Below the pieces are notes generated by a model. It was not told the origin of the DNA. It made no database searches and saw only the letters and a list, made by a program, of their open reading frames with translations. A stretch of DNA of 64,000 nucleotides from the NCBI GenBank assembly GCA_964649665.1, contig CAZYPU010000001.1:16428-80427 (forward strand), in the 5' to 3' direction. The position numbers and the translations under genes were made by a program. Below, piece after piece: positions 52-63,963 of the stretch (position 1 is its first letter; every line of letters starts with the position of its first letter). Source of the DNA: an uncultured Planctomycetia bacterium. Lineage in GTDB: Bacteria; Omnitrophota; Gorgyraeia; JABMRN01; RBG-13-46-9.

Positions 52-3000
52 ATGAACGACGAGAACGAAGATATAGCGTATGAGGCCATCAAAGGCACCG
101 GATGCATTTACGCGGCTATGGTAGAGAGCGGACAACCTGTTCCCATAGGAAGCATAGTGAATAAATTAATGGCAGATAGAGACAAACCGGTAGTTCCCGC
201 CAGATACGCCGCCATAGAGGCGGTTGCCGCTATATGCATAGCCATGATAAATAGAGGGATAGATCCGCCGAGGGCAGCGATATCAGGATTGGAATGGCAA
301 TTTAAAGATTCAAAATTATCCGCTTGCAATAGCAGACGTGAGGCACTATGGGCATTATGTTCGATTTATCGGGTCATGGCAGACCACGATATGGATGTGC
401 CGTTTGAAAAAATTTGCCAGTACGCAGAAAATATCTTCGCATGGGTTAATGGCAAGGAATCGGCGGCATTCAGCGCTCTTTGTGTCACTCTTATTAATAA
501 AGGGATAAACGTCCCGCACTCTATGTTTAGGAATGCCTTAAACGAAGACTGGCTATTTTTTGTTCGGGATATCCTGATGTCCCAAGAACCGGTATATGAG
601 GCTTTGTTTGAGCGCGGTGACGTGCCGTTACACGATCTGGAAGAGAGGTTACGTGACGACCTTTATATAACCCCTGATATTGCAAAACCGGCAACGGCTT
701 TCATGGGATTAGCGTATGCGGCCCTTATCCGCCAGAATAGACTATCGGAACGCGACTGGCAGATATACGAGATGTGGTTAAAGTCGAGGTTTCCCAGGAC
801 ACCATGGATCCTGGAAGAATGCCTCTCGTCACCCGATCCGCTGACATACATAACCGATCTTGCGCGCGAATCCGAACTCCTTCTAAAAAACGGTTTTGAT
901 CCGGACAACGAAAAGGCGCTCTGGCGCGTCTATGTGGGTCTAAGGAGAGCAGGCATAGATATTAACTTTGGAGGCTTAAAAGAAAATGTCGAACACCTCA
1001 TGGCTTTTGACAAAAAACATCCGGGTTATTTCGCGAACATGTTTAATAAGGCAGGGATTTTAAGCCAGATACAGATAAGCGGAAAAGGCGGAGTTATTTT
1101 AGACGCGAGCGGAGTAGATGCGGGTAAGTTGGACAAGAATCTCGCTAAGCTTAAAGGCATGAAAGAGAGAATAGACAGCTTGAGATGGCTGGAAGAGGAC
1201 TTTCCCGGAAACAAGGTATTTAATTTGAAAAATATCTATTACCTTTTAAAACGCAGAGAGGCGGAAGCGTCCGGCGCGCATAAAGGCGGAAGGTTTGTTG
1301 TCACGTACCCGTCCGAAGACGCCATGGGAGAATATATTCTTCAGAATAGCCCTCTTTATTACCGGCTTGTTTTTGAACTTGCGCTCGCGCGCATGGGCGA
1401 CGGGGTATTAGGCAAAAGATGCTTTGCCCTGGCAAGGGATCTTATTGTGAGTGAGGCTCTTTCGGATGAAATTCTGGTTGGACGGATGGGATCGGCGGAT
1501 ACAGACGTAAAAACAGAAGCGTTCAAGAACTTTTACGAGAATTATAAAAACCATCTGCCGGATTCTGCCGGTGTAAGGCTGGCGAAGATAAAAGGCATGC
1601 CCGAGGCATTTGGTGAACTGTCGGGAGAAGTATATTCGGAGATCTCTAAGGTAAAGGTGACTAAAAATAGAAGCGAGGGGGCCTACCGGCTCGTCCCGCA
1701 GGGTTTCTTGAGCGTATTTCGCGGCATAGCCGGAATCAAGGACTGCTCTTACGGGCTGCGCGAGGCCTGTCCGAGGCCTATGCATGAGGACACGCTTTAC
1801 TATTTTGTCTATAAAGGCGAAGAATTAAAGGGGTACATAGGGATGTGCGTCGGTAAGACGCGGCTTGGCAAAAAGATATTGACAATAGATACCGTGCAAT
1901 CTCCTTCGCTTGACGGCGAGGAACTGCTCGCATGCCTATTTTGGGCCCTGGACGCGCAGGCGAAAGAATTAGGCTGCGCAGGCATAGCCCTGCCGAGGGA
2001 CCTTGCCCCGTCATTCAATTTTAGCAATAAGGATACCATATCCAGGATGAAGGCATATAGCCGAGGCCGCCGGATAAGAGTTACGCCGGTTCACAGTGGA
2101 AGCTGGAAAACGATGAATGACTATTTTGGCGAGGACGAATACAATTCAATCGAAGACGGACAATTTGTCTCGTTAAATTTCAAATATTTATCGAAACCGG
2201 AATCACCGCAAGACAGCGTAATCTCAGGCGGCGCGCGTCGAAGGCACAGGCCGGTGTATTTGATGAGTCTGCCCGGCGCGGGCACGCCGGAAGGCACGGG
2301 TGTGCCCGCAGACCCGCAACCTGACAATGCTAACCCGTTTATAAAAGATGGAAAAGAGATCGCTCCTGAGCGGATAAGGCAAGCCGCGACGCTTGCAAAA
2401 GGCATTTTTCCGGATCTACGAAAAGAACAGGAGATATGGATTTTAAAAACAGCGAAAGATGTAAAACAGCTTCGCGCCCAAGGAGCGAAAATAGCCGGAT
2501 CAATAGGTTTCAGCCGGGCGGCCAGGGACCGGTACGCCGGAGCATTAAGAAATAGTTTTGCGTTTAATGTGGCTGGCATTATCTGTTTAATTCCTAGAAA
2601 CGCAGATTCTTCCGGGGGAACGGCCGTTACAGATATGATAATAGCGCACGAGACAGGTGAGACATATCTTTTTCAATTGGGAATTACGCAAGAGATGGCA
2701 GAGCTTGCTTCAGACATTATCAGAAAAGCGAACTTAAGCAAAAAAGATGAGTGGGCAGGGGGTAATTTCGCGTGCGACCTTCTGATAAACAAGATGATTC
2801 TGGATAAAGGGAAAAACCGCTTTGCAGAGCAATATAGGATATTTTTTGACGCAAGAAAAAAACACTACAAAGCCAAGCGGCCGCATTTATTCAAAAGTTA
2901 CAATTTATACCTAAGGGCTCTCGAGATAGTAGCGGATATCGAGGAGGGAACGTTCTCTGAGCCCGATGACTCTCTCGAGGAAAAAGCGCTTCTTGTCGCA

Positions 3001-4992: not shown

Positions 4993-5030
4993 GATTCTTG
5001 ATAATGTAAAATATTGTGGACACTTTGTTT

Positions 5031-5175
5031 CTCCGTCATTGCGAGGACCCCGAGCAAGCGGCCGAAGGCCGCGCGTCGAGGGGGACGAAGCAATCTCAAA
5101 CGAAGAGATTGCTTCGGTCTGCTTCGCAGACCTCGCAATGACGGAATAAAGGCTTCGCGGCCTCGCAATGACGAA
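5031..5175. mobile_element. MITE-like palindromic element, copy 1 (TIR CTCCGTCATTGCGAGG / CCTCGCAATGACGGAG; internal core palindrome CGAAGCAATCTC..GAGATTGCTTCG; tandemly duplicated right terminus)
   Basis: This is the reverse complement of the element at 7768-7933 and is also related to 62409-62510. Terminal inverted repeats were read directly. It sits immediately 3' of the giant ORF stop and is preceded by the conserved flank GATAATGTAAAATATTGTGGRCACTTT. Confidence 0.75.
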
Positions 5176-5223
5176 GAAGCGAAATGTCCAATTATCTTGA
5201 TATTACAGGGCTTTTTTTCCGGC

Positions 5224-7707: not shown

Positions 7708-7712
7708 GAAAA

Positions 7713-7761
7713 AGGTGCCAGGCACCTTAGTTGAATTTATTTAAGGTGCCTGGCACCTTTT
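7713..7761 (+). terminator. Twin palindromic hairpins (AGGTGCCAGGCACCT and AGGTGCCTGGCACCT), the second followed by a T-run; a rho-independent terminator after the permease gene
   Basis: Perfect 7 bp stem palindromes at 7715-7729 and 7745-7759, then TTTTTC. Confidence 0.6.
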
Positions 7762-7767
7762 TCTATT

Positions 7768-7933
7768 TTGCGAGGTCTGCGAAGCCTTTACTCCGTCATT
7801 GCGAGGTCTGCGAAGCCTTTACTCCGTCATTGCGAGGTCTGCGAAGCAGACCGAAGCAATCTCTTCGTTTGAGATTGCTTCGTCCCCCTCGACGCGCGGC
7901 CTTCGGCCGTTTACTCGGGGTCCTCGCAATGAC
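7768..7933. mobile_element. MITE-like palindromic element, copy 2 (orientation opposite to copy 1; left end carries 2.5 tandem copies of a 31 bp unit TTGCGAGGTCTGCGAAGCCTTTACTCCGTCA)
   Basis: Its reverse complement matches 5031-5175 almost base for base. Same TIRs and the same core palindrome. Confidence 0.75.
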
Positions 7934-7984
7934 GGAGAAGCAAAGTACCTAATTATCTTGACATTACTGGGCTTTTTTTGCGGC

Positions 7985-37184: not shown

Positions 37185-37493
37185 CTTTGCTTTGGGGTGC
37201 ATTCTTCCGCTTGCCGCTCGAAAAAGGATGCGCGCCTTTTTCTCGCTGTGACAAAAATCACTCATGTTCTAAATGGCGCGATTGTATTCGCGATTTTTGA
37301 CAGTCGCTCCAGAACACACCCCAAAGCAAAGCTTCTAGTTACAATAGGGGACGTTTCACTTTGACGTAACAGCTTGCGAATAAAGATGTTAGAACACGTC
37401 ATTTTCCGCTTTTTTTCTACAAAAGTGGAAAATGGCAAGTTGTATATTATTGTAACACAATGAGTTATGGCAAAGTGAAACGTCCCCTATTGT
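37185..37493. repeat. Nested long inverted repeats in the 540 bp leader region of the 4284-aa giant gene
   Basis: IR-A: GCTTTGCTTTGGGGTG (37185-37200) with CACCCCAAAGCAAAGC (37317-37332). IR-B: a perfect 23 bp pair, ACAATAGGGGACGTTTCACTTTG (37341-37363) with CAAAGTGAAACGTCCCCTATTGT (37471-37493). There is also an inner imperfect IR (CATTTTCC..GGAAAATG). Confidence 0.7.
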
Positions 37494-37578
37494 CATTAAA
37501 TCAACCCAAGCTAGCGTGCACTTCTCCGTGAATAGTTGACCCGTGTTAAAGATAAAAAAGCCAGATTAAATATTACAC

Positions 37579-50633: not shown

Positions 50634-53600
50634 ATGTTGCATATAAAACGTAGTATTTGGGTAAAATTTATAGCAATGGGCATGGCCTGCCTATTTTTTC
50701 TTGACACCATCTCGTGGGCGTATCCCGTTGACCGGTCCGAAATTACCACTCTCGCCGCGCAAAGCATGTTCAACTCCATTCTCGACGCCATTACAAAAAA
50801 GCCCTCCGAACGCTACTCATACCGAAAGCGTCTGGAAAAAGAAATGGTCTGCATTATCGAAATGGCGCTTAGGGCGCTGGATAGGAAGAACCCTGACATT
50901 GACTGGGGAAGCCACCTCAACATTAACGCGGCGCTTAACACGATGCAGCATGACGGGCGTTACCGCAAGCTGATGGAAGTCCTGGATATACCGAGGCGCC
51001 TGGAGGACGAAAAAGGGGAGTACATCGAAATACTCGTAAAAACCACAAGGCCAAGCGGAAGACAAAAAGAATTTACGATTAAATTCCGCGGCGAAAAACT
51101 CGATGACCTCTCTGATCGGGGCAAGATTGAGATTATATCCGCGGAAGGGAATACTGCGCCGGCGCCAAATACGGATATCGAGGCGCCGAAAGGACCGTAC
51201 GGAACCGGGGTAAAAAGGGTTAAGGTACCATTCAAGGAAAAGAATCTGGAGGCGCGAAAAAAGAAAGCGCTTTCCTTTATTAAAATAAAATCCGCCGAAT
51301 ACTGCCACAGTGAACTTTGGGATAATATCTGGAACAGCCTTGTTTATAATGGGGGCGTAGCTGAAATAGGAGCGGTTTTAAAAAGGAAGATAAATCGGGT
51401 TCTGCGCTCGCCCCCGGTGGTTAGGAAAAAAGAAGTTGCCATGGAGGCGGTGAAGAGCCTTGCGACTTCTCTTGCCCTAAAAGAGAACTCCGGCAGCGTT
51501 GACCGCGCGTTAATGCGTGATTTTAGAATAGCGGTTCTTTTATTGCTGGATATCTTTGTGCCGGGCATACATGAGGAATTTAAAAAGCAAGATATTTTGG
51601 ACGGCGAACATTTCTTTCCCGGGATATTCGACCGCCTCTCGATTCGCGGTATCCCTGCCGCCCCGGCCGCAGACATGGCCGAGCCGCAATCGCCAAAACC
51701 TGAAGGCCCAGCGCAGGGGCCGAAAGCCGAATTCATGATTCCGGGCGCGGCGCCGGACATGGGCGCGGCGGCGCTCGGAGCGCTCTGGCCGTTCGGGTTA
51801 GTCGGCGCTCTGCCGAGAACACCGCGGCGCCGGTTCGGGGAGCCCCTTATAGATTCGTTATTTAATCGCGGCAAGCGCTTCATGCAGCCGGCTATCCCGC
51901 CCGAGATGGGCGGCGCCGTAGCCGAGCCGGCATCGCCGAAGCCCGCACATGGGACAGGTACAAGCTCGGATTTGAAAGCGTCCCTACCGTCCTATACCGA
52001 AGAGACCCTGTATGCGCTGGAACAAGCAGGAGGCAATCAGGCAAAAGCAGCCGGCATACTTAACATAGGCCTATCAGCTGTCTCAGAGAGAAAAAGCCGC
52101 ATAAGACGAGTCGCCGTCAAAATAAACGATAATGCCACGCTCAAACGGCTGCTACCCCTACCGTCCTATACCGAAGAGACCCTGGAGGCGCTGAAAAAAG
52201 TAGGGGGTAATCAAGTAAAAGCAGCTCGTGTGCTTAGTATAATCCAACAAACTGTTTCACAGAGAATAATCGCCATAAGACGGGCCGCCGCCAGAATAGG
52301 CGATAAGGCCACGCTTGAACGACTTGCTAAAGCGCTATTATCATTACCTGCTTATACCGAAGCAACCCTGGAGGCGCTGGAACAATCGCAAGGCAAGCAG
52401 AAAGAAGCAGCCGGTATACTTAAGATAAGCCAAGCAACTGTTTCACGAAGAATAAGCGCCATAAGATCAATCGCCACCAGAATAGACGATAAGACTACAC
52501 TTGAACGGTTTAATGAAGTGTTAAAAGTCTCAAAAGGCGCCGCCCCAGGCGACAGCGTATCGTCAAGAGGTCGTCAAGGCGCCGCAATCGGCGCGGGACT
52601 TACCACTTTAAGCTGGCAGGCGGGATTATGCTTCTTCGCGTTCCTATTCGTTTATGAGATCGCCCGGCAGGTCTGGTATGCGAGATTCTACAAGAATTTA
52701 CTCGATAGCCACCCCAAGGCTACGCGAATAATCAATTCCTTCTTCTCAAGCTCCTTCCATTTCCCGCGGGTCATAGAAGATTTTATAAAGAACCATATCA
52801 CGCAGCCGTTACTGAATATATTCTCAAGAATAAGATTTCAAAGCCCGATCGTGCAGGTCCGATTAGCCGGCATTGGCCGCACGATTACCGTTTTCAGAAT
52901 GCCGGTGGAACTAATGATGTCTGAGAAATCGCCGCAGAAGCCGCCGGGCCATGCGCTAGGAGAGCTGCCGGCGTCCACCGCAGTCCCGTCCGAGCCGCTA
53001 GGCGCGCCGGAGGGAGCACACTCCCAACCTGACAAACTCGAACAGGTTAGGATCTTGTTGCGCACGCTCATCCAAAAAATAAATTTATTCTTTTTTGGAA
53101 TATTTTCGCAAAAGAAACAATCGCGCGAAGTTGGCCTTGAAGATTTGGTTTTTGAAAGGGCCGTTATAATCGGCGAAGGATCGTTCTCCCGTGTATTCAG
53201 AGTCCCGCATAAAGACAATGGCGTCGATTACGCGTTAAAACTTTATTGCAAGGCGCCTCCGGGTTATTCTCTGAAGAGCGCCGTTGAATTGATCGATTAT
53301 CAAATGCGCATCGCCCGCGAGTATCCGCAACTGATTAAATCCGGAATCATGCCCAAGTATTTTACAAAAGGCAGTTGTTATTTTGACGGCGATAGGCTCA
53401 GCCTTGCACCAATAAGCGAAAAAGCATACCCATGCCTGCTGATGGAGTATATCAAGGGAGATGATCTATCTTCTCTATCAGATCTGGATTATCACGTAGG
53501 GACAAAACTTGTTAGGGATGCATTGGCGGAGGGGCAAGACCAATATATTATCGCTGCCCTATATAATATTCTGCGTGATAAGCTGGACGAGGCATATTCT

Positions 53601-56600
53601 ATAGCGCAGGCAGTTAATGCCTGTCATAGCGCAGAGCCTCATGGCACTTTTCCCGGGGGATTACTGATTAAGGAGCTCAAGCCGACTAACATTAAAGTAC
53701 GGCCAGACAAAACCGTTTGCCTGGTGGATCTCGAAAGTGCGGTCCCGCTAAATTATGACTGGGTGCGTAATCCTTCCGGAGTGCCGCCGGTAGCGAGACT
53801 GGTGATGACCAGCGCTTTCAGCGAGGATAAAAACGCTTTTAAAGACAAATCCAAAGCGGGCTTAATCCTCTTAGGGCAAAAATTGGATGTGCCGTGGGAT
53901 ATTTATAGTTTTGGCGTGGTATTATCGAGGATGCTGCATGAATATAACATAACGCTGGATGACGCCGCAGAGATTAAGGAAGCAGCAGTACAAACCGATA
54001 CGATGAGAAGGTTCTTGGAAAGAGCAGAATTTGCCAAGGGACAATTTAAGCGGTCGATCGCCGGCATGAAGGAGATTATAAAGAAATGCACGATAAAAGA
54101 TCGAACGAAGCGCTACCGGGATATGGGCGAGGTCATCGAGGCGCTTAAAGATTGCATTGGCGTGGTTGATAAAGAATTCAGGGGCAAAATTCCCGCTGAG
54201 CTGCCGTCGCAGGAACCGCGCGGCACCACGTCCCAAGAGAGCATTGAGCCTAAAGCAGCCGCGGCCGAGCCGCCGGCGCCGCGAGTCGCGCCAAAGGCGA
54301 CAGAGCCATTGCCGGAAACTGCAGGAACAAATTCAGGCCCAGATTCGAAATCGCCTCTGTCCCCGTCTATGCTTCCGGGCGGGGAAGAACAGCCGTATAA
54401 GCCCGGCCAATACGTATACGAACACCCGTATAAGTGGTTTTTAATTTCCGCAGCAGGGTTGTCAGCCAATTTGCTTGCGGCGGCCTTATGCCTGGTCCCG
54501 GCTATATTGATTTCATCTTCCATCAACCTTTCCACGCCACCGCTTATAGCGCTCGGCGGCGCGCTATTATATTGCGCAGGCGCTCTGAACGCGATAATAT
54601 TTGCCGTTAACATTCTCGAAGCCGGCATGGCGTTTATCCGGGGAGACGTTGTGGTAAAAGACATCCCGTCGGAAACGGATAAAATTAAAAAATACCTTTA
54701 TACCGCCAGCATACCGCACGAACTGGGCCACTATCTTATGGCGAGGTTATTCGGATTAAATGTGAAATTTTCCACAATCGGGGTTGATTGTAAAGATATC
54801 GACGTGTTTGAAGTAACCGATTATACGAATATGCGCTACGCGATTAATATGATGAAAGAACGCGGCCTTTTCCCATTCTCAAGCTCGCAACCCGGCAAAT
54901 TTAATCGGGTTAAAATCGGGGGGAGTAATGAATTCGTTTTTAATGTTACCGAAAAAGACAGATATTTGTTAGAGCAAATGGTTCGGGCCTGGGCTTCGGA
55001 GAAAAGCCTTGACGCCGGCATTGAAGTGACAATGGATAACCGTCTCATCAACGTTTATAAAGGCCATGACCAGTACGCAATTCTGAGTTATTCGGTGGGG
55101 ATGGGAGAAAATTCAGAAATTGAAATCACTATCTATAATCAACGCGTAGAGTATCCATATAAAAGTCAGGGATTGATGGCGCTTTTACAAACCTATATCT
55201 TTTATCTGTCTAAATCGGACAAAGTCACTTATTGGAACATAGAAGGTACGGACGGAAAGGTATTCGCGAAAACAATGGAGGATAAAGGTATCTTAACGGA
55301 TGTAAAATACAAGAAAACTTCCCGCCTCGAAGATCATACCGAAGTGCGCTATGCGGAAGCGAGCATTAATAAAAACGTAGTGGCACAAAGAGCCAAGGAC
55401 TATCCGTTCGCGGCCGAGCCGCCGTCGCCGCAGGGTCCGAAAGCCGAATTCATGGTCCCGGGCGCGGCGCTGGATACAGGCGCGGCGGCGCTCGGAGCGC
55501 TCTGGCCGCTCGGGTTAGTCGGCGCTCTGCCGAGAACACTGCGGCGCCGGTTCGGGGAGCCCTTTATGGATTCGATATTTAACCGCGGCAGGTGCTTTAT
55601 GCAGCCGGCTATCCCGCCCGAGATGGGTGGCAGCGCGACCGAGTGCGAGGCGCCGAAGCCTGTGAATATTAGCGCTGAAAAAAAGGAGGCGTTTTTTAAT
55701 GAATTAGGTATAGGAGAGGAAGCCCTCGCAGCCGCTATCTTGAAATCCCCTACACTCGCAGGGCTTAACCCAGCCCGTGTAAGGAGGGCCTGGAGAGATA
55801 AATTAGGCATAGAAAAAGAAGCCCTCGCGGCCGCTATCTTGAAATGGCCTAAAATTGCAGGCTATAATGTTCCAAATAATATCAAGCCGAAACTGCAGAT
55901 TCTCAAGATGTTTAATGTCGGAAAAAATAAAATAATGGACTTCCTTATCAGGATAGTTGATTTTAACAGCAAGGCATTGGAATTTATTTTAGAGGCCTCA
56001 AAAGCGTCTTCTTTTGAGATAAAAGACATCAAGACATTAATAAGGATCTATAGAAAACTGAATAAAGCTGTCAAAGCTAAGACAAAAGTTACACTTGCCG
56101 GATGGTTCCGGGAACGAATAACCGATGATATTAATTTGACGGTGAAGCCAATTCTGTCGGATATTATAACCGAATTGCAGTCAGAAGAGACTGTGGATGA
56201 GGATTTGTGGGCAATGATAAAAGAAGCGAAGGCAATATTTGAGAGACAAGAAGAGAATGCCGTTGCCAGAGGCGAAAGAGAAGAACCTCGTAAATTTTCT
56301 CCTATTGCCTTATTTAGAATAGATTCGGCCCTTTACTATAGAGCCAGAAGAATAGGAATGTTGCGCAGGCTGCATTATATTAAACCCAGGTTAGGGTTGC
56401 GCAAGGAAGATACCGGCAGGCTTATTCAGGAGATAATGAAAGCAGAAGAAGAGTTTGACCGGCGTGAAGAGCGGGATGTCCGACGAGGATTTAGGGACAG
56501 CGCCCGCCCATGGATTCGTAGAAGGCTTTGGGAAATCAACCCATACCTGTATGATTTTTTACATAATCATAGGCCGGATTTACTCAAAACCTGCGTGCCT

Positions 56601-59600
56601 GCCGGCCTCCCGGGAAAGGGAAACCGCCACCAAAAGCTTCCAGATAACATATCTCTGGTAGGAAGAGAGGTTGATACTGAAGGGTTGGATTTAGATAATG
56701 TTTACTCTGACGTCAAGTTTTCCAAACCCGCTAAAGCGTCCGGTATAGGTATTTTTGCAAGAAACGAAGAATTGCTGGCAAAGATTGAAGAGATGATATC
56801 CGCCGGTGTCTGGGATCGGCGTGAAGCGTTCATTGTGAAGGAACGGTTGGGACTTAATCCGGAGGGAGCCAGGCGTTCCCTGCAGGAAATTGCGCATGCC
56901 CTGCGCATTACCAGAAACAGGGTATGGCAGATTGAGACAGACGCTATCCGGAAAGCGCAATTTTGGCTGAGGAAATCCCAACACCCTGTATTGAACGCAG
57001 AAAACGATGGACCGGCGTCTGGCACTGCGTCTGAACAGACAACAGCTACCGCCTCGGCCAAGTTGGCACCGCAAAAAGAACATGGTGGCACGTCGTCAGG
57101 AAATTCTTACGGCGCCGCAATCGGCGCGGGGCTTACCGGATTAAGCTGGCAGGCGGGATTATGCTTCTTCGCGTTCCTATTCGTTTACGAGATAGCCCGG
57201 CAGGTCTGGTACGCGAGATTCTACAAGAATTTACTCGAGAGCCACTCCGGGCCTGCCCGAATAATCAATTCCTTCTTCTCAAGCTCCTTCCATTTCCCGC
57301 GGGTCATAGAAGATTTCATAAAGGACCATATCACGCAGACGCTACTTAGCGTCGTTTCAAGAATAAGATTCCAAAGCCCGATCGCCAAAGCTCGGCTGGT
57401 TGATGGTTCAGTGGCACAGTTTCTTCAGATGCCGGTTGTATTTATGAGCACGGATTCAGGCGGCGAGGCTATAAAACGACCCGCCACCCTGCCTGTGAGG
57501 GTAAAAGAATTTTCTCAGTTGGATTCGATGCCGCTACACGGCTCGATAATGGAGTTGCCGATTTCCAGTAGAATTAAAAAAAGGTTGGCACGTGGAGGCG
57601 TCAAAACTATCGATGAACTTAAAAACATGACGCTCGACAAAATTCGTCAAATTTACGGGATTGGCGAAAAATCCATGACTATTATAAAAGCTATAAAGGA
57701 TAGGCTTGATGAATTGGCTGATATAGAGATGATGAAAAAAGAGCAATTAGCTAAGGAAGAGAAAAAGGCAGAAAATAAAAGGCGGCGGGAAAGACTAAAA
57801 TATATACGTGACGAGTTAGGCGTTAGCAGACTAAAATTCATTTCACTATTAAATGCCGCTGGGGCCGCATCCACGATAGAGATGTTGGGATATCTAAGAG
57901 GGTTAACCATTATCCCGGATCGGGTTATCGATAGTGCGGAGAATTTATTGCGACACGAGCGCGAAATAGCAAGAACAAGAGCGGTTCAGCTAGAAGCAAA
58001 AAGACAATTGGTTTCCTGCATTACGGCGTTTGAACAATTAAAAGAAAAACTTAAGACAGCAGATTTTGATGAGAGGAGGAGCGAACTTACGATTGCGCAA
58101 ATCTGGGTTGAGCCGGATTACCATACAAAGGAAATAGGCATTCACGGTTTTATGGATACAATCGCTGATAAAATAATCGCTCTAGATATTAAACCTCAAA
58201 ACCACAAGGCATTAAGGGCGCTTTTTGAATTAAGTGTAAGATATTTCAGCGGCAATATCAATGTTTTTAGAACCGTTTTGGCAAATATAAATAATGTAGA
58301 AGAACTGATAGAATTCCCTGCTTATATTGGATCCAACGGATTTAATCGCGAAAGCATAGATGAAGAAATGCGGCGTTTCCGAGAATGGCTACGTTCTAGA
58401 AGGGCAATACTTCCTTTCGAAACGGGCACATTTTCGTGTCCTTCTTGGTGGCCGTATGTGCCGAATGAGCTGGCTCCCGTCACAAGTGTCGGCAGGAGAA
58501 AATATTCCAAGGACGAAAGAGTTTCCGTAGGATATGGAGGATTTTTTGAAGGGTATTTAGATTTTATTATTGTCGGCGATACAATGCGAATTGGCGAGAT
58601 TCACGGTAAAATAGAAATGCACAGATTAATCCCAGAGGTTCGAAAGAAAGTAAGCGGCTGGGAAAAGTTGGCGCTAGAAGAAGCCATTAAAGAGGCCGGG
58701 CGGCGAGGGGTCAAGACGATTTTGTTCTCCCCTCCATTCGCGCAATACAGAGCGCTTAGCCAATGGAATACGTCTAACCCCGATTCGGATATAGCTTACA
58801 GGATTTATAGTAACCTGCCTTTTGATTCAGGGTTTAGATTAAAGATTAGAGAAAAAATCGTTTTTAGCGAAAATTTCCGCAATCAATTATTCTCTCATCT
58901 TGTATGGCAAAGAGACGCCGCCCCGGCCGCAGTCGCGGCCGAGCCGCCGGCGCCTCTGGCATCGGCCGGAGCCGCGGGCGAAACCCAAACACCCGCCGCG
59001 CGGAGGATAGTCGATACTATAAATGGTTATGAAGAAATCTTCCCGGGAGGCAACGCAGTCGGCCGTTATATAGATCCTGAAGGTAATCCGAGGAATTGCA
59101 CACTAAGCAGGGCGTGTTATGACAATGACTTCTGCAGAATACTGGCGGCGGATATCGGCAATGGCAACGCCGGAAAGAAAGCCCTCTCCATAGGCGCGGG
59201 CTCGGGTGTGCTTGAGAGTCGGCTAAACGAGGCCCATGGCCTTGAAGTTACATGTATAGATATAATCTCGAAATTCATGCCGTGGGATATGCGGGGGTCC
59301 ATGGCGTTTACTCTTGCCGACGGTGAGCATCTTCCGTTTGCGGACAATAGCTTCGATATTGTCATCTTATCGGAAAGCATAGGGCATATGAAACTTGATA
59401 TCGCCCTGGCTGAAGCGTTCAGGGTCTTGAAGCCGGGAGGAGTGATTCATATACTGACGCCTGATCCTGCGAACAAACTGTCCTGCGATCCCAGTTTGTT
59501 CGCGGCGCTAAAATATTCTCCCTATGATATCGCTCAAATTATACATGGATTGAAGAATTCAGGTTTTGAAAATGGTGAAAGAATAAAAGATGACAACCGC

Positions 59601-62327
59601 TCGGCATTCCTGGGGCTTATATATGTGCGGGCCGAAAAGGCTGCGATAACCATTCCCTCCGAGCCGGCGCCGGCCACGCAGTCAGGTCACGCGACCGCCG
59701 CCGTAAAAATACGCGAACTTACAGTTGATGAGTTAGGCGGATATTCAGTTGACCTGATAGCGTTGGAAGATAAGATGCCGCCGGCTGCCAGGGAAGATTT
59801 AGTAATACTATTGGAAGAGATTAAGAGGTGCGCTTCTCAATGTCAGCATTTTGTAATTTTAGGCGCTTTTGATAACGGTCAATTGATAGGATACACGATA
59901 GGTATGTCCGTATCATGGCTTATCGACTATTTCACGAATAAAAAGATAGCCGCTCCGGCATTCATATCCAGAATAGCAAAAGACAGCAAGAATTGGTTTA
60001 TTCCCAGGATAGTAGTTTTACCGGAATACAGAAAACATGCCGTGGCTTACAGGCTCTTTCAGCAACTATCAGGTATGGCCCGAGATAGAAACGCTCAAAG
60101 GTTTTATGCTGTTCTATTGGACGAGAGATTAGCCGCGACCCTTGAGGAATTAGGCGCTAAGCGGATAAGTCGATGGTTTAGTCTGTTAACTTCCCTCAAA
60201 GGTCAAGGCGGCGTGCATCTGAAAATACCCGTAAATTTATTTTCCGCCGGCCACACAGGTAACACAGGCGGACAGAAAAAGTACCGTTCAAAAGCCGCCG
60301 ACCCGACCGCAGGCGCGGCCGAGCCGCCGGCGACGGAACCAGCGCCGGGGGCAAGTCCAAGCTCAGATTCGGAGGAGTCTATTTCGGTACATAGTGATTT
60401 TGGAAGACGACAGTTGCTCGGATTACCCGATAAAGCACGAATGCTGAAATACATCGCTGGTAACAAAGTTATTGAGTTAGGATGCGGAGGAGGTTCGGTT
60501 ACGGGATTGATAAAACAAAGGCTTCCTGATGGCCGTGTTGTAGGCATAGATTTTGAAGAAAGATTTTTAAGAAAAGCGAGAAACGATTACCCGACTTGCG
60601 AGTTTTATCATAGAAACCTTCTGGAATGGGATGACATCGATAGCTTTAAAGGGCAATTCAGCACGGTAATATTATCAAGCGCATTACACGAGATAGAAGG
60701 TGAAGACACCAGAGAGAGGGTATTAAGGACAGCATATGAACTATTGGAGAATGGCGGCGTTATAATTTTCCGTGATGGAGTGAAACCCAAAAACAAGGAA
60801 GAAGAGGTTGAAGTAATATTAAAAACCCCATATGCAAAAGAAAAGTTTGAGCTATTTGTCAAGGAATATAGACATAGAAAAATTAGGTTCATCTATACGG
60901 ATGAAACGCATACGCGTATTCGTATTACCAGTTATGATCTGCATGATCTCCTCTGTAAATATTATTTTGAGGGTGAACTTTGGAAAAGAGACATGAGTGA
61001 GTCTTTCGGACAAATGAATATGGGGGAATATCTTGATTTAATCGGCAGGTATTTTGCTATTACGCATCATGAAAAATACATAGCGCCTTACCTAAAAGAA
61101 TTGTGGGAAAAAGATTTTGAAGTAGTAAACAAAGACTATCCCGAAAGCCATACCCTTATAGTAGCGTCAAAACCGGCCGAGCCGCAAATTTCTAAGCCGG
61201 ATGGTACGAGAACCGAAATTCTGCAGGCCGCAGCCGCGGCCGAGCCGACATCGTCGAAGCCTGCCGAGGGCGGCAGAACGATATTCAAATTTTTTTCAAG
61301 TCAAAAGGAAGTAGTTGAGATATATCGGGATGGAACGCTTAAGGTGGCAATAAAAAGACCGGACAGGGACCTCCGGGATATTTTTGAAGAATGGCTTAAG
61401 AACGAACAAGACCCCAACGTGAAGGAAGCGATTAATTTAGCGCTTGCAAAATTGCCCTTTGACACCGATAGACAAGAAGGGGTCGATACAAAAGGCGCCG
61501 CCGCGGCCGAGCCGCCGGCGACGGGGGACTATAAAACGAATATGCAGGCAATTATAAAGCCCGGTGATATCTCAATCGAAGACAGCAAATTTCTTTTAAG
61601 CCGCGCTTCGGAATACCTCAAGGAGAAGCCGGTCGATATGTCGATAGACCTTTCCCTGATACCGAAGGAAGACATGGAGAGGAACATGGAAATATGGGCC
61701 TATATAATAGCACTTCATGATAAATACGGGTTTAATGCCCACTATATATTTGAAGGGAAGGATAAGAAATATAAAGCATCGGCGGAGGAAACGCTTCTCG
61801 CGAAAATAAAAGATTTATCCTTTTGGAAACGCCTTGATGTTAAGGCCATAAAGGCGCGCGTAACCGATGAATCGCGGCCGGCCGCTATGAGAATAAGCAT
61901 CATGCCGCTCAAGAAACTGGAGGCAATGCCCGTGATACCCGAAAATACTTTTCCGGTGGCCATGTCAGAAGGGCAAAACTTAGACGGCGTACCCTTGTGG
62001 GATTTTGTGGGCGCGGCGAGCCTGGGCCTCGCGCAGGCGGCTTGCGCGAAATTAATAAGGGAAAATAAAGCCGGCTATTTGGAAACCATAGAGCGTAAGT
62101 TTCTCCCGAGAATGCAGGCTATATACGAAAGGCTATTTCCAGGGAAGGAAGTAAAAGAAATAGTTACGAGGCAAACAATCCTCGAAATGGTAAACGAAGA
62201 TCCTTCCGCCGTAAGGGCGCGAATAAACCTGCTCATAGAGCTTGCCTTGCCGCCCATCGTGCGCCTGGCCCTGCGGGATCTAGACGACTACTACGCCAGT
62301 CTCCGCACCCTGCTAAGAGCCGCGTAA
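50634..62327 (+). CDS. Giant multi-domain membrane-associated protein (3897 aa): Fis-type HTH x3, Hanks-kinase-like, M50-like HExxH, sigma70 region-4-like, RNAP alpha-CTD-like, two SAM-methyltransferase domains and a GNAT domain
   Basis: Single uninterrupted 11.7 kb ORF. N-terminal leader homologous to that of the previous giant ORF. Multiple hydrophobic segments. AAAEPPAP-type linkers occur between modules. Confidence 0.85.
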   Translation: MLHIKRSIWVKFIAMGMACLFFLDTISWAYPVDRSEITTLAAQSMFNSILDAITKKPSERYSYRKRLEKEMVCIIEMALRALDRKNPDIDWGSHLNINAALNTMQHDGRYRKLMEVLDIPRRLEDEKGEYIEILVKTTRPSGRQKEFTIKFRGEKLDDLSDRGKIEIISAEGNTAPAPNTDIEAPKGPYGTGVKRVKVPFKEKNLEARKKKALSFIKIKSAEYCHSELWDNIWNSLVYNGGVAEIGAVLKRKINRVLRSPPVVRKKEVAMEAVKSLATSLALKENSGSVDRALMRDFRIAVLLLLDIFVPGIHEEFKKQDILDGEHFFPGIFDRLSIRGIPAAPAADMAEPQSPKPEGPAQGPKAEFMIPGAAPDMGAAALGALWPFGLVGALPRTPRRRFGEPLIDSLFNRGKRFMQPAIPPEMGGAVAEPASPKPAHGTGTSSDLKASLPSYTEETLYALEQAGGNQAKAAGILNIGLSAVSERKSRIRRVAVKINDNATLKRLLPLPSYTEETLEALKKVGGNQVKAARVLSIIQQTVSQRIIAIRRAAARIGDKATLERLAKALLSLPAYTEATLEALEQSQGKQKEAAGILKISQATVSRRISAIRSIATRIDDKTTLERFNEVLKVSKGAAPGDSVSSRGRQGAAIGAGLTTLSWQAGLCFFAFLFVYEIARQVWYARFYKNLLDSHPKATRIINSFFSSSFHFPRVIEDFIKNHITQPLLNIFSRIRFQSPIVQVRLAGIGRTITVFRMPVELMMSEKSPQKPPGHALGELPASTAVPSEPLGAPEGAHSQPDKLEQVRILLRTLIQKINLFFFGIFSQKKQSREVGLEDLVFERAVIIGEGSFSRVFRVPHKDNGVDYALKLYCKAPPGYSLKSAVELIDYQMRIAREYPQLIKSGIMPKYFTKGSCYFDGDRLSLAPISEKAYPCLLMEYIKGDDLSSLSDLDYHVGTKLVRDALAEGQDQYIIAALYNILRDKLDEAYSIAQAVNACHSAEPHGTFPGGLLIKELKPTNIKVRPDKTVCLVDLESAVPLNYDWVRNPSGVPPVARLVMTSAFSEDKNAFKDKSKAGLILLGQKLDVPWDIYSFGVVLSRMLHEYNITLDDAAEIKEAAVQTDTMRRFLERAEFAKGQFKRSIAGMKEIIKKCTIKDRTKRYRDMGEVIEALKDCIGVVDKEFRGKIPAELPSQEPRGTTSQESIEPKAAAAEPPAPRVAPKATEPLPETAGTNSGPDSKSPLSPSMLPGGEEQPYKPGQYVYEHPYKWFLISAAGLSANLLAAALCLVPAILISSSINLSTPPLIALGGALLYCAGALNAIIFAVNILEAGMAFIRGDVVVKDIPSETDKIKKYLYTASIPHELGHYLMARLFGLNVKFSTIGVDCKDIDVFEVTDYTNMRYAINMMKERGLFPFSSSQPGKFNRVKIGGSNEFVFNVTEKDRYLLEQMVRAWASEKSLDAGIEVTMDNRLINVYKGHDQYAILSYSVGMGENSEIEITIYNQRVEYPYKSQGLMALLQTYIFYLSKSDKVTYWNIEGTDGKVFAKTMEDKGILTDVKYKKTSRLEDHTEVRYAEASINKNVVAQRAKDYPFAAEPPSPQGPKAEFMVPGAALDTGAAALGALWPLGLVGALPRTLRRRFGEPFMDSIFNRGRCFMQPAIPPEMGGSATECEAPKPVNISAEKKEAFFNELGIGEEALAAAILKSPTLAGLNPARVRRAWRDKLGIEKEALAAAILKWPKIAGYNVPNNIKPKLQILKMFNVGKNKIMDFLIRIVDFNSKALEFILEASKASSFEIKDIKTLIRIYRKLNKAVKAKTKVTLAGWFRERITDDINLTVKPILSDIITELQSEETVDEDLWAMIKEAKAIFERQEENAVARGEREEPRKFSPIALFRIDSALYYRARRIGMLRRLHYIKPRLGLRKEDTGRLIQEIMKAEEEFDRREERDVRRGFRDSARPWIRRRLWEINPYLYDFLHNHRPDLLKTCVPAGLPGKGNRHQKLPDNISLVGREVDTEGLDLDNVYSDVKFSKPAKASGIGIFARNEELLAKIEEMISAGVWDRREAFIVKERLGLNPEGARRSLQEIAHALRITRNRVWQIETDAIRKAQFWLRKSQHPVLNAENDGPASGTASEQTTATASAKLAPQKEHGGTSSGNSYGAAIGAGLTGLSWQAGLCFFAFLFVYEIARQVWYARFYKNLLESHSGPARIINSFFSSSFHFPRVIEDFIKDHITQTLLSVVSRIRFQSPIAKARLVDGSVAQFLQMPVVFMSTDSGGEAIKRPATLPVRVKEFSQLDSMPLHGSIMELPISSRIKKRLARGGVKTIDELKNMTLDKIRQIYGIGEKSMTIIKAIKDRLDELADIEMMKKEQLAKEEKKAENKRRRERLKYIRDELGVSRLKFISLLNAAGAASTIEMLGYLRGLTIIPDRVIDSAENLLRHEREIARTRAVQLEAKRQLVSCITAFEQLKEKLKTADFDERRSELTIAQIWVEPDYHTKEIGIHGFMDTIADKIIALDIKPQNHKALRALFELSVRYFSGNINVFRTVLANINNVEELIEFPAYIGSNGFNRESIDEEMRRFREWLRSRRAILPFETGTFSCPSWWPYVPNELAPVTSVGRRKYSKDERVSVGYGGFFEGYLDFIIVGDTMRIGEIHGKIEMHRLIPEVRKKVSGWEKLALEEAIKEAGRRGVKTILFSPPFAQYRALSQWNTSNPDSDIAYRIYSNLPFDSGFRLKIREKIVFSENFRNQLFSHLVWQRDAAPAAVAAEPPAPLASAGAAGETQTPAARRIVDTINGYEEIFPGGNAVGRYIDPEGNPRNCTLSRACYDNDFCRILAADIGNGNAGKKALSIGAGSGVLESRLNEAHGLEVTCIDIISKFMPWDMRGSMAFTLADGEHLPFADNSFDIVILSESIGHMKLDIALAEAFRVLKPGGVIHILTPDPANKLSCDPSLFAALKYSPYDIAQIIHGLKNSGFENGERIKDDNRSAFLGLIYVRAEKAAITIPSEPAPATQSGHATAAVKIRELTVDELGGYSVDLIALEDKMPPAAREDLVILLEEIKRCASQCQHFVILGAFDNGQLIGYTIGMSVSWLIDYFTNKKIAAPAFISRIAKDSKNWFIPRIVVLPEYRKHAVAYRLFQQLSGMARDRNAQRFYAVLLDERLAATLEELGAKRISRWFSLLTSLKGQGGVHLKIPVNLFSAGHTGNTGGQKKYRSKAADPTAGAAEPPATEPAPGASPSSDSEESISVHSDFGRRQLLGLPDKARMLKYIAGNKVIELGCGGGSVTGLIKQRLPDGRVVGIDFEERFLRKARNDYPTCEFYHRNLLEWDDIDSFKGQFSTVILSSALHEIEGEDTRERVLRTAYELLENGGVIIFRDGVKPKNKEEEVEVILKTPYAKEKFELFVKEYRHRKIRFIYTDETHTRIRITSYDLHDLLCKYYFEGELWKRDMSESFGQMNMGEYLDLIGRYFAITHHEKYIAPYLKELWEKDFEVVNKDYPESHTLIVASKPAEPQISKPDGTRTEILQAAAAAEPTSSKPAEGGRTIFKFFSSQKEVVEIYRDGTLKVAIKRPDRDLRDIFEEWLKNEQDPNVKEAINLALAKLPFDTDRQEGVDTKGAAAAEPPATGDYKTNMQAIIKPGDISIEDSKFLLSRASEYLKEKPVDMSIDLSLIPKEDMERNMEIWAYIIALHDKYGFNAHYIFEGKDKKYKASAEETLLAKIKDLSFWKRLDVKAIKARVTDESRPAAMRISIMPLKKLEAMPVIPENTFPVAMSEGQNLDGVPLWDFVGAASLGLAQAACAKLIRENKAGYLETIERKFLPRMQAIYERLFPGKEVKEIVTRQTILEMVNEDPSAVRARINLLIELALPPIVRLALRDLDDYYASLRTLLRAA
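51981..52530 (+). other. Three tandem ~56-aa repeats, each a Fis-type (HTH_8-like) helix-turn-helix
   Basis: LPSYTEETLYALEQAGGNQAKAAGILNIGLSAVSERK, LPSYTEETLEALKKVGGNQVKAARVLSIIQQTVSQR and LPAYTEATLEALEQSQGKQKEAAGILKISQATVSRR resemble the NtrC/Fis C-terminal HTH (AL..TGGN..KAA..LGI.R.TL.RK). Confidence 0.55.
53135..54170 (+). other. Domain: eukaryotic-like (Hanks-type) Ser/Thr protein kinase fold with an atypical catalytic loop (IKELKPTN in place of HRDLKPxN); possible pseudokinase
   Basis: Gly loop IGEGSFSRVF, the YALKL Lys, helix-C Glu, hinge LLMEYIKGDDL, VDLES in the DFG position, and subdomain IX DIYSFGVVL. The catalytic Asp is replaced by Glu (GAG at about 53673-53675). Confidence 0.7.
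54714..54746 (+). other. HExxH zinc-metalloprotease-like motif (PHELGHYLMAR) in a transmembrane context, similar to site-2 protease (M50)
   Basis: HELGH followed by ..AR, as in RseP/SpoIVFB, and preceded by hydrophobic helices. No downstream LDG motif was found, so this is tentative. Confidence 0.35.
56815..56970 (+). other. Domain: sigma-70 region 4-like HTH
   Basis: RREAFIVKERLGLNPEGARRSLQEIAHALRITRNRVWQIETDAIRKAQ fits the r4 pattern (ER...L.LRYGL.....TLEEIG...gvTRERIRQIE.kALRKL). Confidence 0.6.
57519..57720 (+). other. Domain: RNA polymerase alpha-subunit C-terminal domain (alpha-CTD, HhH)-like
   Basis: MELPISSRIKKRLARGGVKTIDELKNMTLDKIRQIYGIGEKSMTIIKAIKDRL against the alpha-CTD pattern LELSVRSANCLK.A.I.TVGELV..TE.EL..I.NFG.KSL.EIKE.L. 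Confidence 0.6.
59180..59465 (+). other. Domain: class I SAM-dependent methyltransferase (Methyltransf_11-like), first copy
   Basis: LSIGAGSGV (motif I), LPFADNSFDIVI, LKPGGVI. Confidence 0.65.
59855..60165 (+). other. Domain: GNAT-like acetyltransferase
   Basis: QLIGYTIGM ... IVVLPEYRKHAVAYRLFQQL. Confidence 0.45.
60463..60785 (+). other. Domain: class I SAM-dependent methyltransferase, second copy
   Basis: VIELGCGGGSVT (motif I) ... VVGIDFEERFL ... FSTVILSSALHEI ... LENGGVIIF. Confidence 0.65.
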
Positions 62328-62408: not shown

Positions 62409-62510
62409 AACATGTCATTGCGAGGTCTGCGAAGCAGACCGAAGCAATCTCTTCGTTTGAGATTGCTTCGGCCGCAAACGAAGAACAGGGCGGCCTCGCA
62501 ATGACGGAGA
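62409..62510. mobile_element. MITE-like palindromic element, copy 3 (same orientation as copy 2; shortened right arm), with conserved left and right flanks
   Basis: CATGTCATTGCGAGGTCTGCGAAGCAGACCGAAGCAATCTCTTCGTTTGAGATTGCTTCG ... CCTCGCAATGACGGAG. Left flank GATAATGTAAAATATTGTGGGCACTTT and right flank GAGAAGCAAAG..CAATTATCTTGACACTAC match those of copy 1. A double hairpin (GTCCGACCGCGTAAGTCGGACCTACGCGG, 62351-62376) precedes it. Confidence 0.7.
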
Positions 62511-62595: not shown

Positions 62596-63963
62596 ATGGA
62601 CCAAAAAGAGGCGCTTCAATATCTGGATTCGTTCGTAAACTACGAGAAAATCGGCTACAGGGAACAGGGCTTATTTGAGCTCGGAAGGATGCGCCGCCTG
62701 GCCGGGCTTTTCGGCGATCCGCAGGATTCTTTTCCCGTAATTCACATCGCGGGCACAAAGGGCAAGGGCTCTATAGCGGCCTTTACCTCGAGCATGCTTA
62801 AATCCGCGAACTTCAAAACGGGCCTTTATACGTCACCGCATCTTATTGACTTTCGAGAAAGGGTGAAATTCAATGACGAGATGATACCGGAGGCGGATTT
62901 TGCTTTTCACGCGAACATGATAAAGGATAAGCTCGAAGTAGAGAATTTAGGGTTTTCACCGACATTTTTTGAGATTTTCACGATTCTCGCCTTTAATTAC
63001 TTCAAGGCGAAAAAAATAGACATAGGGGTAATAGAAGCGGGCCTTGGCGGGCGATTGGACGCGACGAATATCGTAAACCCGGCAGTTTCCGTCATATCCC
63101 CCATAAGCTACGACCACACAGAGGTCCTGGGCGAAAGCCTGGAGAAAATAGCCGCGGAGAAAAGCGATATTATAAAAAAAGGGTGCGTCTGCATCAGCGC
63201 GCCGCAGGACGAAAAGGTTTTAGAAATAATACGGGAGAAATGCGATTCGCTCGGTGTTAAACTTATCCAGGCGGGGAGGGATATAGGCGTTGGGGAAATC
63301 TCTTACACCGACGACAAAGAGGTATTCGACATTCGGGGCACGTTCGGAGAATATAAAGCTTGCGAAAGCCGCCTTATAGGCAGGCATCAGCTCATGAACG
63401 CCGCCTCGGCCGTCGCTGCAATCGAAAGCTTGTCAGCCGACGCAGCTGATTGGGGTCGGCTAACATCAGCCGACCCCAATCAGCTGCGTCGGCTGACAAA
63501 GGGTCGGCTGACGCGCAACATAAAGAAAGGGCTGGAGAAAACACGGAATCCGGCAAGGTGCGAGGTAATAGCAAGGAACCCTTATATCATCTTCGACGGC
63601 GCACAGAATAGGGCGAGCGCGAACGCCCTAAAAGAAACGATTAAAAGAAATTTTAACCATAAACGGCTTATTTTAATATTGGGTATTTCGAAGGAAAAGG
63701 ACATAAAAGGCGTATGCGAAGAACTTGCGCCCCTGGCCGATCATGTTATTTTAACAAAGGCGATGATAGAACGCGCTGAAGAGCCGCGCTCTATCGCGCG
63801 CTTTGTAGCGGGAAAAAACGTGATTTTAACAAATTCCGTAAGCGAAGCGATGGAAAAAGCGCGTTCTTTGGCGGGAGAGGGCGACATGATATTGATTGCG
63901 GGATCTTTTTATGTGGCGGGTGAGGCATGGAAGACACAATCGTTGCTATATCAACACCGGTAG
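62596..63963 (+). CDS. folC: Folylpolyglutamate synthase / dihydrofolate synthase (FolC), carrying a ~23-codon in-frame palindromic insertion
   Basis: Mur-ligase P-loop HIAGTKGKGS, YTSPHL, the RLDATN-region motif, HQ..NAA.A.AA, ..DGAQNRASANAL.. The true start is the ATG at 62596. Confidence 0.85.
   Translation: MDQKEALQYLDSFVNYEKIGYREQGLFELGRMRRLAGLFGDPQDSFPVIHIAGTKGKGSIAAFTSSMLKSANFKTGLYTSPHLIDFRERVKFNDEMIPEADFAFHANMIKDKLEVENLGFSPTFFEIFTILAFNYFKAKKIDIGVIEAGLGGRLDATNIVNPAVSVISPISYDHTEVLGESLEKIAAEKSDIIKKGCVCISAPQDEKVLEIIREKCDSLGVKLIQAGRDIGVGEISYTDDKEVFDIRGTFGEYKACESRLIGRHQLMNAASAVAAIESLSADAADWGRLTSADPNQLRRLTKGRLTRNIKKGLEKTRNPARCEVIARNPYIIFDGAQNRASANALKETIKRNFNHKRLILILGISKEKDIKGVCEELAPLADHVILTKAMIERAEEPRSIARFVAGKNVILTNSVSEAMEKARSLAGEGDMILIAGSFYVAGEAWKTQSLLYQHR
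63431..63498. repeat. Perfect 68 bp palindrome (31 bp arms TGTCAGCCGACGCAGCTGATTGGGGTCGGCT, 6 bp loop AACATC) inside the folC coding sequence
   Basis: Read directly. arm2 is the exact reverse complement of arm1. It encodes SLSADAADWGRLTSADPNQLRRLTK between two conserved FolC blocks. A partial repeat, GTCGGCTGAC, recurs at 63503-63512. Confidence 0.85.

Follow-up and report, generated by a model that had tools for sequence, protein, structure and literature searches.

Repetitive extragenic palindromic sequences (REPs) and the REP-associated tyrosine transposases (RAYTs) form a well-documented system in bacteria (PMC3116915, PMC5581495). In the reference cases, E. coli TnpA-REP (PDB 4ER8) and the REPINs of Pseudomonas, short imperfect hairpins with an internal loop and co-varying stems are dispersed and mostly intergenic, and copies directly flank the gene of a Y1/HUH transposase. 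Hairpins of this kind (~20–45 nt) are spread with the help of a domesticated transposase; other marks of such systems are a GTAG or CGTC tetranucleotide at one end of the palindrome and a RAYT that is single-copy, chromosomal and inherited vertically. In 2013, Di Nocera et al. (PMC3733652) reported REPs translated in frame within known enzymes of Opitutus terrae, Thauera, Thioalkalivibrio (uvrA) and R. conorii (RPE-4/RPE-6); such inserts lie in replication or repair genes, are often dimers and add 20–30 aa, and the proteins are presumed still functional. Template switching at quasipalindromes is, in turn, an established mutational mechanism (PMC7202029, PMC8794818, PMC8604942) in which the DNA gains an exact reverse complement of the stretch beside it and an imperfect hairpin becomes a longer perfect one, with microhomology at a junction and also within coding sequence. 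Here we analyzed a 64-kb stretch of DNA from an uncultured Omnitrophota bacterium (contig CAZYPU010000001.1, positions 16,428 to 80,427; hereafter, the window), in which folC contains a long perfect palindrome. In our reading, which we regard as probable, a RAYT-associated REP-like hairpin that sits in frame in folC was later enlarged by a fold-back template switch, with neutral consequences for FolC. This would be an unusual event of an already known kind, since in-frame intragenic REPs, often dimers, have been described before. The features to which we refer are as follows.

62596–63963, + strand: folC (folylpolyglutamate/dihydrofolate synthase, 455 aa), host gene of the element, identified by open reading frame, Pfam domains and homologues
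63430–63499, no strand: perfect 70-nt palindrome, identified by repeat search, shuffles, and DNA and RNA folding
63430–63432, + strand: TTG, the invariant Leu279 codon of FolC, identified by alignment A1 and codon phase
63433–63461, − strand: 29-nt inverted duplicate of hairpin positions 3–31 (63468–63496), specific to the window lineage
63466–63511, + strand: resident REP-like hairpin, a 46-nt family unit, identified by covariance model R1 and homology to other copies
63480–63496, + strand: inner stem-loop TCAGCTGCGTCGGCTGA (G-type), the same as in the copies flanking RAYT P0125 (L033/L034)
63501–63511, + strand: 3' outer stem half GGGTCGGCTGA, outside the palindrome, which competes with the new left arm for pairing

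The palindrome in folC and the resident hairpin

The folC reading frame begins with ATG at 62596 and ends with its stop codon at 63963. The protein contains the Pfam domains Mur_ligase_M (residues 51–275) and Mur_ligase_C (residues 321–438), and all source-named proteins among its 7731 homologues are FolC of Omnitrophota. The repeat search of the window returned two arms of 32 nt each (63430–63461 and 63468–63499) that are 100% complementary and separated by a spacer of 6 nt, AACATC (63462–63467). An earlier note on this DNA had reported the same object as 68 nt (31+6+31, 63431–63498), one base short on each side, and had rightly placed it inside the FolC coding region with the reading frame intact. 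Zero arm matches are expected in the shuffled window, and the fold is far beyond chance both as single-stranded DNA (−48.5 kcal/mol, z = −14.8) and as RNA (−74.8 kcal/mol, z = −14.1). A search of the 64 kb that allowed up to three mismatches gave no further match to the arm.

Comparison with related folC genes separates the palindrome into an old and a new part. The three closest relatives of the window FolC (P0002, P0003 and P0004; 64–72% identity) carry STDPNQPGRLTGGRLT-like or STDPNQPRRLIRGRLT-like peptides at the insertion site, and these align with the peptide encoded by the right arm of the palindrome plus the residues that follow it (SADPNQLRRLTKGRLT); the left-arm peptide, SADAADWGRL, has no counterpart in the three relatives. 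At the DNA level, the relatives' site is a 46-nt imperfect palindrome, TCAACCGACCCCAATCAACC-GCGT-AGGTTGATCAGGGGTAGGTTGA (in L002, for example, TCAACCGACCCGAATCAACC-GGGGC-GGTTGACAGGGGGTCGGTTGA), homologous to window positions 63466–63511. The hairpin resident at these positions in the window reads TCAGCCGACCC-CAA-TCAGCTG-CGT-CGGCTGA-CAAA-GGGTCGGCTGA and encodes S291–T306; it has two stems, of 11 bp and 7 bp, that are separated by an internal loop, and a 3-nt loop at the tip, as is typical of the family unit of 45–46 nt, scores 68.7 bits (E = 4.5e-23) against covariance model R1, and extends 12 nt beyond the right end of the perfect palindrome. It is homologous to the folC copies in loci L001, L002 and L003 as well as to intergenic and RAYT-flanking copies. 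In all four folC genes the hairpin lies in the same frame, in the same orientation and at the same codon, starting with a TCA codon for Ser and ending two codons before ATA-AAG. Because the same codon is occupied in three related lineages, the resident copy is probably old. The mobile unit is the hairpin of 45–46 nt and not, as the earlier note had proposed, the palindrome, and its presence in folC is shared between lineages rather than specific to one. We also considered that the hairpin might have grown endogenously from native K-I-S codons by local duplication; we rejected this because near-identical hairpins occur in intergenic DNA and beside RAYT genes.

The dispersed hairpin family and its RAYT-like transposase

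We scanned species-representative genomes (one per species) with TCARCCGACCCNAATCARCYG. Five of the 15 matches, all five exact, lie in a single Omnitrophota metagenome-assembled genome (MAG), MFD13423_ilm_asm_bin5, the genome of P0002; ten matches, none of them a hairpin, fall in unrelated phyla and compare with a chance expectation of ~9 by our own estimate. Covariance model R1, built from seven copies, added two copies in this sister MAG, which contains at least seven family copies on five contigs, six of them extragenic. The copies outside folC are intergenic there, with the consensus TCAACCGACCCAAATCAACCG-NNNN-CGGTTGACTGGGGTCGGTTGA (45 nt), and two of them (L007, L014) are followed by T-runs. 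Over 16 copies, 94% of the cells of the hairpin are paired, with compensatory changes on both sides in 10 of its 18 pairs; none of 500 shuffles reached these values, and slid controls were 11–51% paired. Within the window, R1 with filters off detected no family copy besides the one in folC, and there was none in the 10 kb downstream of the window; an extra 9-mer at 41466 is a chance match. A metagenome-wide scan with TCARCCGACCCNAATCARCYG gave 12 non-palindromic chance matches, missed the window's own Joint Genome Institute (JGI) contig, and is uninformative on copy number. The earlier suggestion of a second class of mobile element in this genome accordingly draws on the sister genomes and not on a second copy in the window or the adjoining 10 kb. 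Its companion claim, that the palindrome is unrelated to the CATTGCGAGG repeats, held up: R1 gave these repeats only generic hairpin matches of 13.6 bits, supporting that the folC element belongs to a distinct dispersed family.

Two other kinds of repeat were noted in passing. The CATTGCGAGG...CCTCGCAATG repeats, which resemble miniature inverted-repeat transposable elements (MITEs), are ~90–150 nt long with an inner hairpin and occur in the window at 5017–5190, 7791–7937 and 62416–62505, the last copy being ~90 nt upstream of the folC start. At 7708–7763, the window contains a perfect palindrome with 22-nt arms (core AGGTGCCWGGCACCT) followed by a T-run, which resembles a bidirectional terminator. 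Its 15-mer core recurs directly next to a truncated REP copy of the sister MAG (L012:346–360) and may represent a second conserved hairpin family.

The family is accompanied by a transposase gene. In locus L017, three family copies surround a gene (2394–3032, minus strand) encoding a 212-aa protein that matches Pfam Y1_Tnp with 34.6 bits (cut-off 23) and, as its best NCBIfam match, the REP-associated tyrosine transposase family (REP_Tyr_transpos) with 63.7 bits versus 16 bits for IS200. Its sole PDB match is 4ER8 (E = 2.4e-6), in an alignment that spans the HUH and catalytic Tyr motifs and in which HUH and Y-x-x-NP are conserved; of its 2605 homologues, those named by source are mostly labelled Omnitrophota. 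Family copies directly flank the transposase gene in five of five loci with a close homologue (70–100% identity; L017, L033/34, L035, L036 and L037), ~5–25 nt from the ends of the open reading frame and on both sides wherever the contig permits, and the upstream copy has a TATA-like box on one side and the ribosome-binding site on the other. The gene occupies the same position beside groEL, which is convergent to it, in two genomes whose GroEL proteins share 91% identity. A more distant RAYT homologue (64% identity), in L042 (JGI 3300009373), has a different perfect palindrome on either side, ATTCTGACCGCGTAGGTC-T-GACCTACGCGGTCAGAAT (2707–2743 and 3646–3682, with a diverged third copy at 2936–2972), which contains GTAG; the different palindrome points to co-diversification of REP and RAYT across Omnitrophota, as REP–RAYT co-evolution predicts.

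Taken together, the transposase matches, the flanking copies, the place beside groEL and the separate palindrome of the more distant homologue are hallmarks of a REP/RAYT system, and judged by these sequence features the folC hairpin family appears to be of this type. We infer that the hairpin was mobilized by the RAYT. One RAYT, P0125 (L033/L034; European Nucleotide Archive (ENA) ERZ27245787 / JGI 3300013089), is flanked by G-type hairpins. The contig encoding it comes from the ENA sample that also yielded L046, which is identical to the window, and the folC contig of P0004 (L004); the GC content at third codon positions is 0.55–0.59 for genes on the P0125 contig, 0.56–0.59 for the window and 0.46 for the P0004 folC, and tetranucleotide correlation did not discriminate between owners. 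Based on the shared sample and the window-like third-position GC content, L033/L034 may belong to the organism of the window.

The family differs from the described REP/RAYT systems in its low known copy number, in its host phylum Omnitrophota, for which a literature search returned no paper that links it with REP or RAYT, and in that its copies are singlets or same-orientation repeats and not the inverted doublets of REPINs, in which two full REPs with a short spacer between them replicate as one unit; even the doublet in the window consists of one full unit and a 29-nt fragment. Nor does it correspond to a MITE (~70–300 bp, with terminal inverted repeats and a target-site duplication), as the unit is 45 nt and none of 17 copies has a flanking direct repeat. 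The earlier note had drawn a parallel to the Rickettsia palindromic elements (RPEs). By description, RPE-1 elements are likewise palindromic repeats in frame at surface positions of housekeeping proteins, and to this extent the parallel stands; they are, however, much longer than the 45-nt unit, and no dedicated transposase is known for them, while the unit here has an associated RAYT. The REP/RAYT system with its intragenic REPs is the better match. In agreement with the latter (PMC3733652), a REP-type hairpin is translated in frame in a known enzyme and the 1.6-unit insert in the window encodes 27 aa; in contrast to them, the host gene is folC, the insertion is common to four lineages (64–79% FolC identity), and the "dimer" is a perfect partial inverted duplicate and not two full units.

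Origin of the left arm and history of the resident copy

The right arm corresponds to hairpin positions 3–34, and the left arm is its exact reverse complement. The outermost TTG of the left arm is the native Leu279 codon (TTA, CTC and TTA in the relatives), which complements CAA (63497–63499) by coincidence and thereby gives the duplication a 3-nt microhomology at its outer junction. The segment copied in the strict sense is therefore 63433–63461. Together with the 4 nt AACA, this segment encodes S280–T290 (SADAADWGRLT). L001, L002 and L003 lack it, with 12–18 nt of unrelated linker in its place, and R1 recognizes it as a partial match on the minus strand (63429–63452, 23.5 bits). The left arm agrees with the resident copy at 32/32 positions and with the best other known family copy at 27/32; the internal loop CCCCAAT is found, among known copies, only in the window and P0002 folC hairpins. 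Between the Leu and Ser codons there are 33 nt in the window versus 12 nt in L002 and L003, i.e. an addition of 21 nt or seven codons, which matches the spacing of 72 versus 65 residues in the proteins (see below).

These observations are those of quasipalindrome template-switch mutations (PMC7202029; PMC8794818; PMC8604942): a new sequence that is the exact reverse complement of its neighbor and is missing from L001–L003, an outer TTG/CAA microhomology, a location in coding sequence, and the change from an imperfect to a longer perfect hairpin. Reported events typically comprise a few bases, whereas the folC event comprises 29 nt and would have used the hairpin of a mobile element as substrate. 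In the scenario that we favor, a REP-like hairpin of 45–46 nt, an old copy, already lay in frame in the folC linker (63466–63511) when, in the window lineage, a single replication error would have copied its positions 3–31 in reverse complement to the site immediately upstream. The nascent minus strand, having just copied the hairpin, would have folded back on itself across a 6-nt loop, templated its own copying up to CAA, and then re-annealed at the Leu279 TTG codon; a microhomology at the inner junction is presumed. In this way, ~8 nt of the old 12-nt linker would have been replaced by 29 nt, giving the net gain of 21 nt and a perfect palindrome with 32-bp arms. An intramolecular template switch of this kind is likely and is the simplest account of the left arm.

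We weighed this account against other explanations of the palindrome. Its main rival for the left arm is that a second, truncated family copy was inserted by the RAYT in inverted orientation beside the resident one, as a REP dimer or REPIN-like doublet. Intragenic REPs are reported to be dimers or grouped in >50% of cases with 20–30 aa (PMC3733652), REPs are known as targets of further insertions, and copies of this family do cluster, with three within 1 kb around the RAYT genes. Yet the left arm is a fragment (positions 3–31 plus the native Leu codon) that has neither end of the unit, its sequence is that of the resident copy at every position, CCCCAAT included, where no other known copy exceeds 27/32, and clustered copies elsewhere are complete, in the same orientation and 60–75 nt apart rather than abutting and inverted; we therefore consider a second insertion decidedly unlikely. 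The proposal of the earlier note, that the entire 68–70-bp palindrome is a recent, lineage-specific mobile element resembling an RPE or MITE, gains some appeal from the in-frame position within a housekeeping gene and from the perfect identity of the arms, which suggests youth. It is nevertheless highly improbable given that the right arm is orthologous to sequence in three other lineages, the family unit (63466–63511) overruns the palindrome, an invariant folC codon supplies the outer 3 nt of the palindrome, a target-site duplication is lacking, and no second arm copy was found in the 64 kb at up to three mismatches. Perfect palindromes are also a classical product of chimeric reads, so that a foldback artefact of assembly or amplification, which the earlier note had itself raised, had to be considered. 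However, the gene sequence including the palindrome is identical in JGI contig Ga0208325_1000028 (3300025824, 35 kb), a 37-kb MEGAHIT contig in ENA (ERZ27245787), assembled from a different sample, equals the window across the entire 11.4-kb overlap including the palindrome, and the exact FolC protein is found on five contigs. Because these independent contigs from different samples agree, and colinearity and reading frame resume downstream of the palindrome with a net change of exactly +21 nt, we regard such an artefact as extremely unlikely.

In a neighbor-joining tree, the FolC proteins P0002 and P0004 are sisters (83% bootstrap), and their folC copies share derived changes (a GCGTA loop and C to A at column 40), from which it follows that the copy was inherited vertically there. 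Monophyly of the hairpin-carrying FolC proteins received 0% bootstrap, which rejects a history of one gain without loss. At the third positions of the 16 hairpin codons, lineages are 75–94% identical versus 46–69% in the rest of folC (binomial P = 8e-5, 0.002 and 0.02 in three of the six non-independent pairs). Relative to the other copies, the window copy has paired changes in both stems, A to G and T to C, and as a result its inner stem-loop is that of the copies flanking RAYT P0125. The third-position and stem patterns suggest either constraint at the nucleic-acid level or homogenization, between which they do not separate.

Constraint would be expected if the folC hairpin were kept by selection as a nucleic-acid element, either as mRNA structure or as a working RAYT substrate; as mRNA structure it might set the expression of folC and the downstream mnmE, for example through cleavage by RNase III or by pausing translation at the domain boundary. 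In favor of selection, the third positions in the hairpin are conserved as described, compensatory changes occurred within folC (AU to GC twice in the window copy, GC to UA in L003), and the RNA would form a perfect 32-bp duplex (−74.8 kcal/mol). A duplex of 32 bp is long enough for RNase III. Against it, template switching from arm to arm or gene conversion from other copies gives paired changes and conserved sequence without selection (PMC8794818), two nested lineages entirely without the hairpin keep an intact FolC, no Rfam family matched the folC hairpin above threshold, and no terminator-like site, i.e. a GC-rich hairpin followed by a T-run, was found at 63430–63511. Among known RNA families, the only matches were sub-threshold and to generic hairpins (microRNA precursors, isrG). 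On balance, selection on the hairpin seems quite improbable to us. An explanation that is unlikely but deserves somewhat more credit is that the folC hairpin is a live REP still serviced by the RAYT of the clade and that the window captures the birth of a REPIN-like inverted doublet. Under this explanation, third codon positions would be held to the stem sequence of the family, G-type stems would be shared with copies that flank a RAYT possibly of the same organism, and nested lineages would have undergone seamless excision or re-insertion at the same codon. If it is true, a singlet REP became an inverted doublet by fold-back replication inside an essential gene.

Our preferred reading, an old RAYT-associated hairpin enlarged by a fold-back template switch, also has to accommodate several points that weigh against it. 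P0003 groups with the hairpin-free P0013 (94%) and P0014 (99%) in the tree, and the empty sites of these two are clean ('KIS|VPA' and 'KIA|PEA'; 14 codons shorter, no scar), so that one old insertion requires two clean losses; the data are explained either by one old gain and two seamless losses or by repeated hits at the same codon. The score of the transposase against REP_Tyr_transpos (63.7 bits) is below the curated NCBIfam cut-off of 80, and no RAYT was detected in the 64-kb window, searched by tblastn, or in the 10 kb downstream of it. No conserved GTAG or CGTC tag was found at the hairpin ends in the flanks of 17 copies: GTAG occurs 7 nt upstream in two RAYT-upstream copies only, and CGTC only in the apical loop of G-type copies. 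In this genome, membership in the family consists of one copy plus those in sister genomes, and the known copy number per genome is small (at least seven in the sister MAG), far below that of classical REP families. Finally, the template switch is deduced from a single end state, in which only one of the two junction microhomologies is observed.

Nonetheless, an odd palindrome here acquires a traceable history, in which a RAYT-associated hairpin would have persisted in an essential folate enzyme in several lineages of uncultured Omnitrophota and, in the window lineage, the conversion of a hairpin to a long perfect palindrome by backward self-copying can be followed base by base. Two details stand out: the patchy occurrence at a single codon, free of scars, and the conversion of a singlet to a doublet in one lineage. 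The clean empty sites in nested lineages make the locus a concrete test site for precise excision and re-insertion of single copies by a RAYT, and the inverted fragment makes it a test site for the origin of inverted REP doublets.

The FolC insert and its neighborhood

At the protein level, the distance between the G.HQ..N and DGAQN motifs is 54 residues in 104 of 117 orthologues, 65 in P0003 and P0004, 67 in P0002 and 72 in the window FolC. The insertion in the latter is therefore 18 aa relative to the orthologue norm, and not ~23 residues as estimated previously; the orthologue alignment thus bears out the presence of an insertion but restricts its lineage-specific part to 7 aa, the rest being common to the three relatives. 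In an AlphaFold model of FolC (overall pLDDT 88.9, pTM 0.90), the insert (residues 280–306) lies between helices 263–281 and 304–315 with pLDDT 48–54, and residues 284–291 are below 50. Based on this model, the insert is predicted to be a disordered surface linker between the middle and C-terminal Mur-ligase domains. FolC would tolerate the insert because it lies in a disordered surface loop, in support of the earlier proposal that an in-frame palindromic repeat is tolerated inside a housekeeping enzyme. We infer that the element is neutral for FolC, for which it probably has no function. For annotation, we caution that 18 extra residues in this FolC are encoded by a repeat and do not represent a functional motif.

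Downstream, mnmE/trmE has a called start that overlaps the end of folC by 37 nt (window 63927–63963; L005:4332–4368), and any effects of the hairpin on folC mRNA could therefore extend to mnmE. Directly upstream of folC is a giant open reading frame of 3897 aa (window 50634–62327, + strand) with Pfam matches to Pkinase and several methyltransferase families and with internal repeats visible in the translation. Elsewhere in the window, a long imperfect inverted repeat (37336–37498) has 78-nt arms that are 73% complementary and a 7-nt spacer. In the sister MAG (JBARPB010000078; L001:1–1414), an intein with matches to Intein_splicing and LAGLIDADG_3 is encoded within the gene for the large subunit of ribonucleotide reductase, upstream of the ychF-folC cluster; on the corresponding side, the window has the giant open reading frame.

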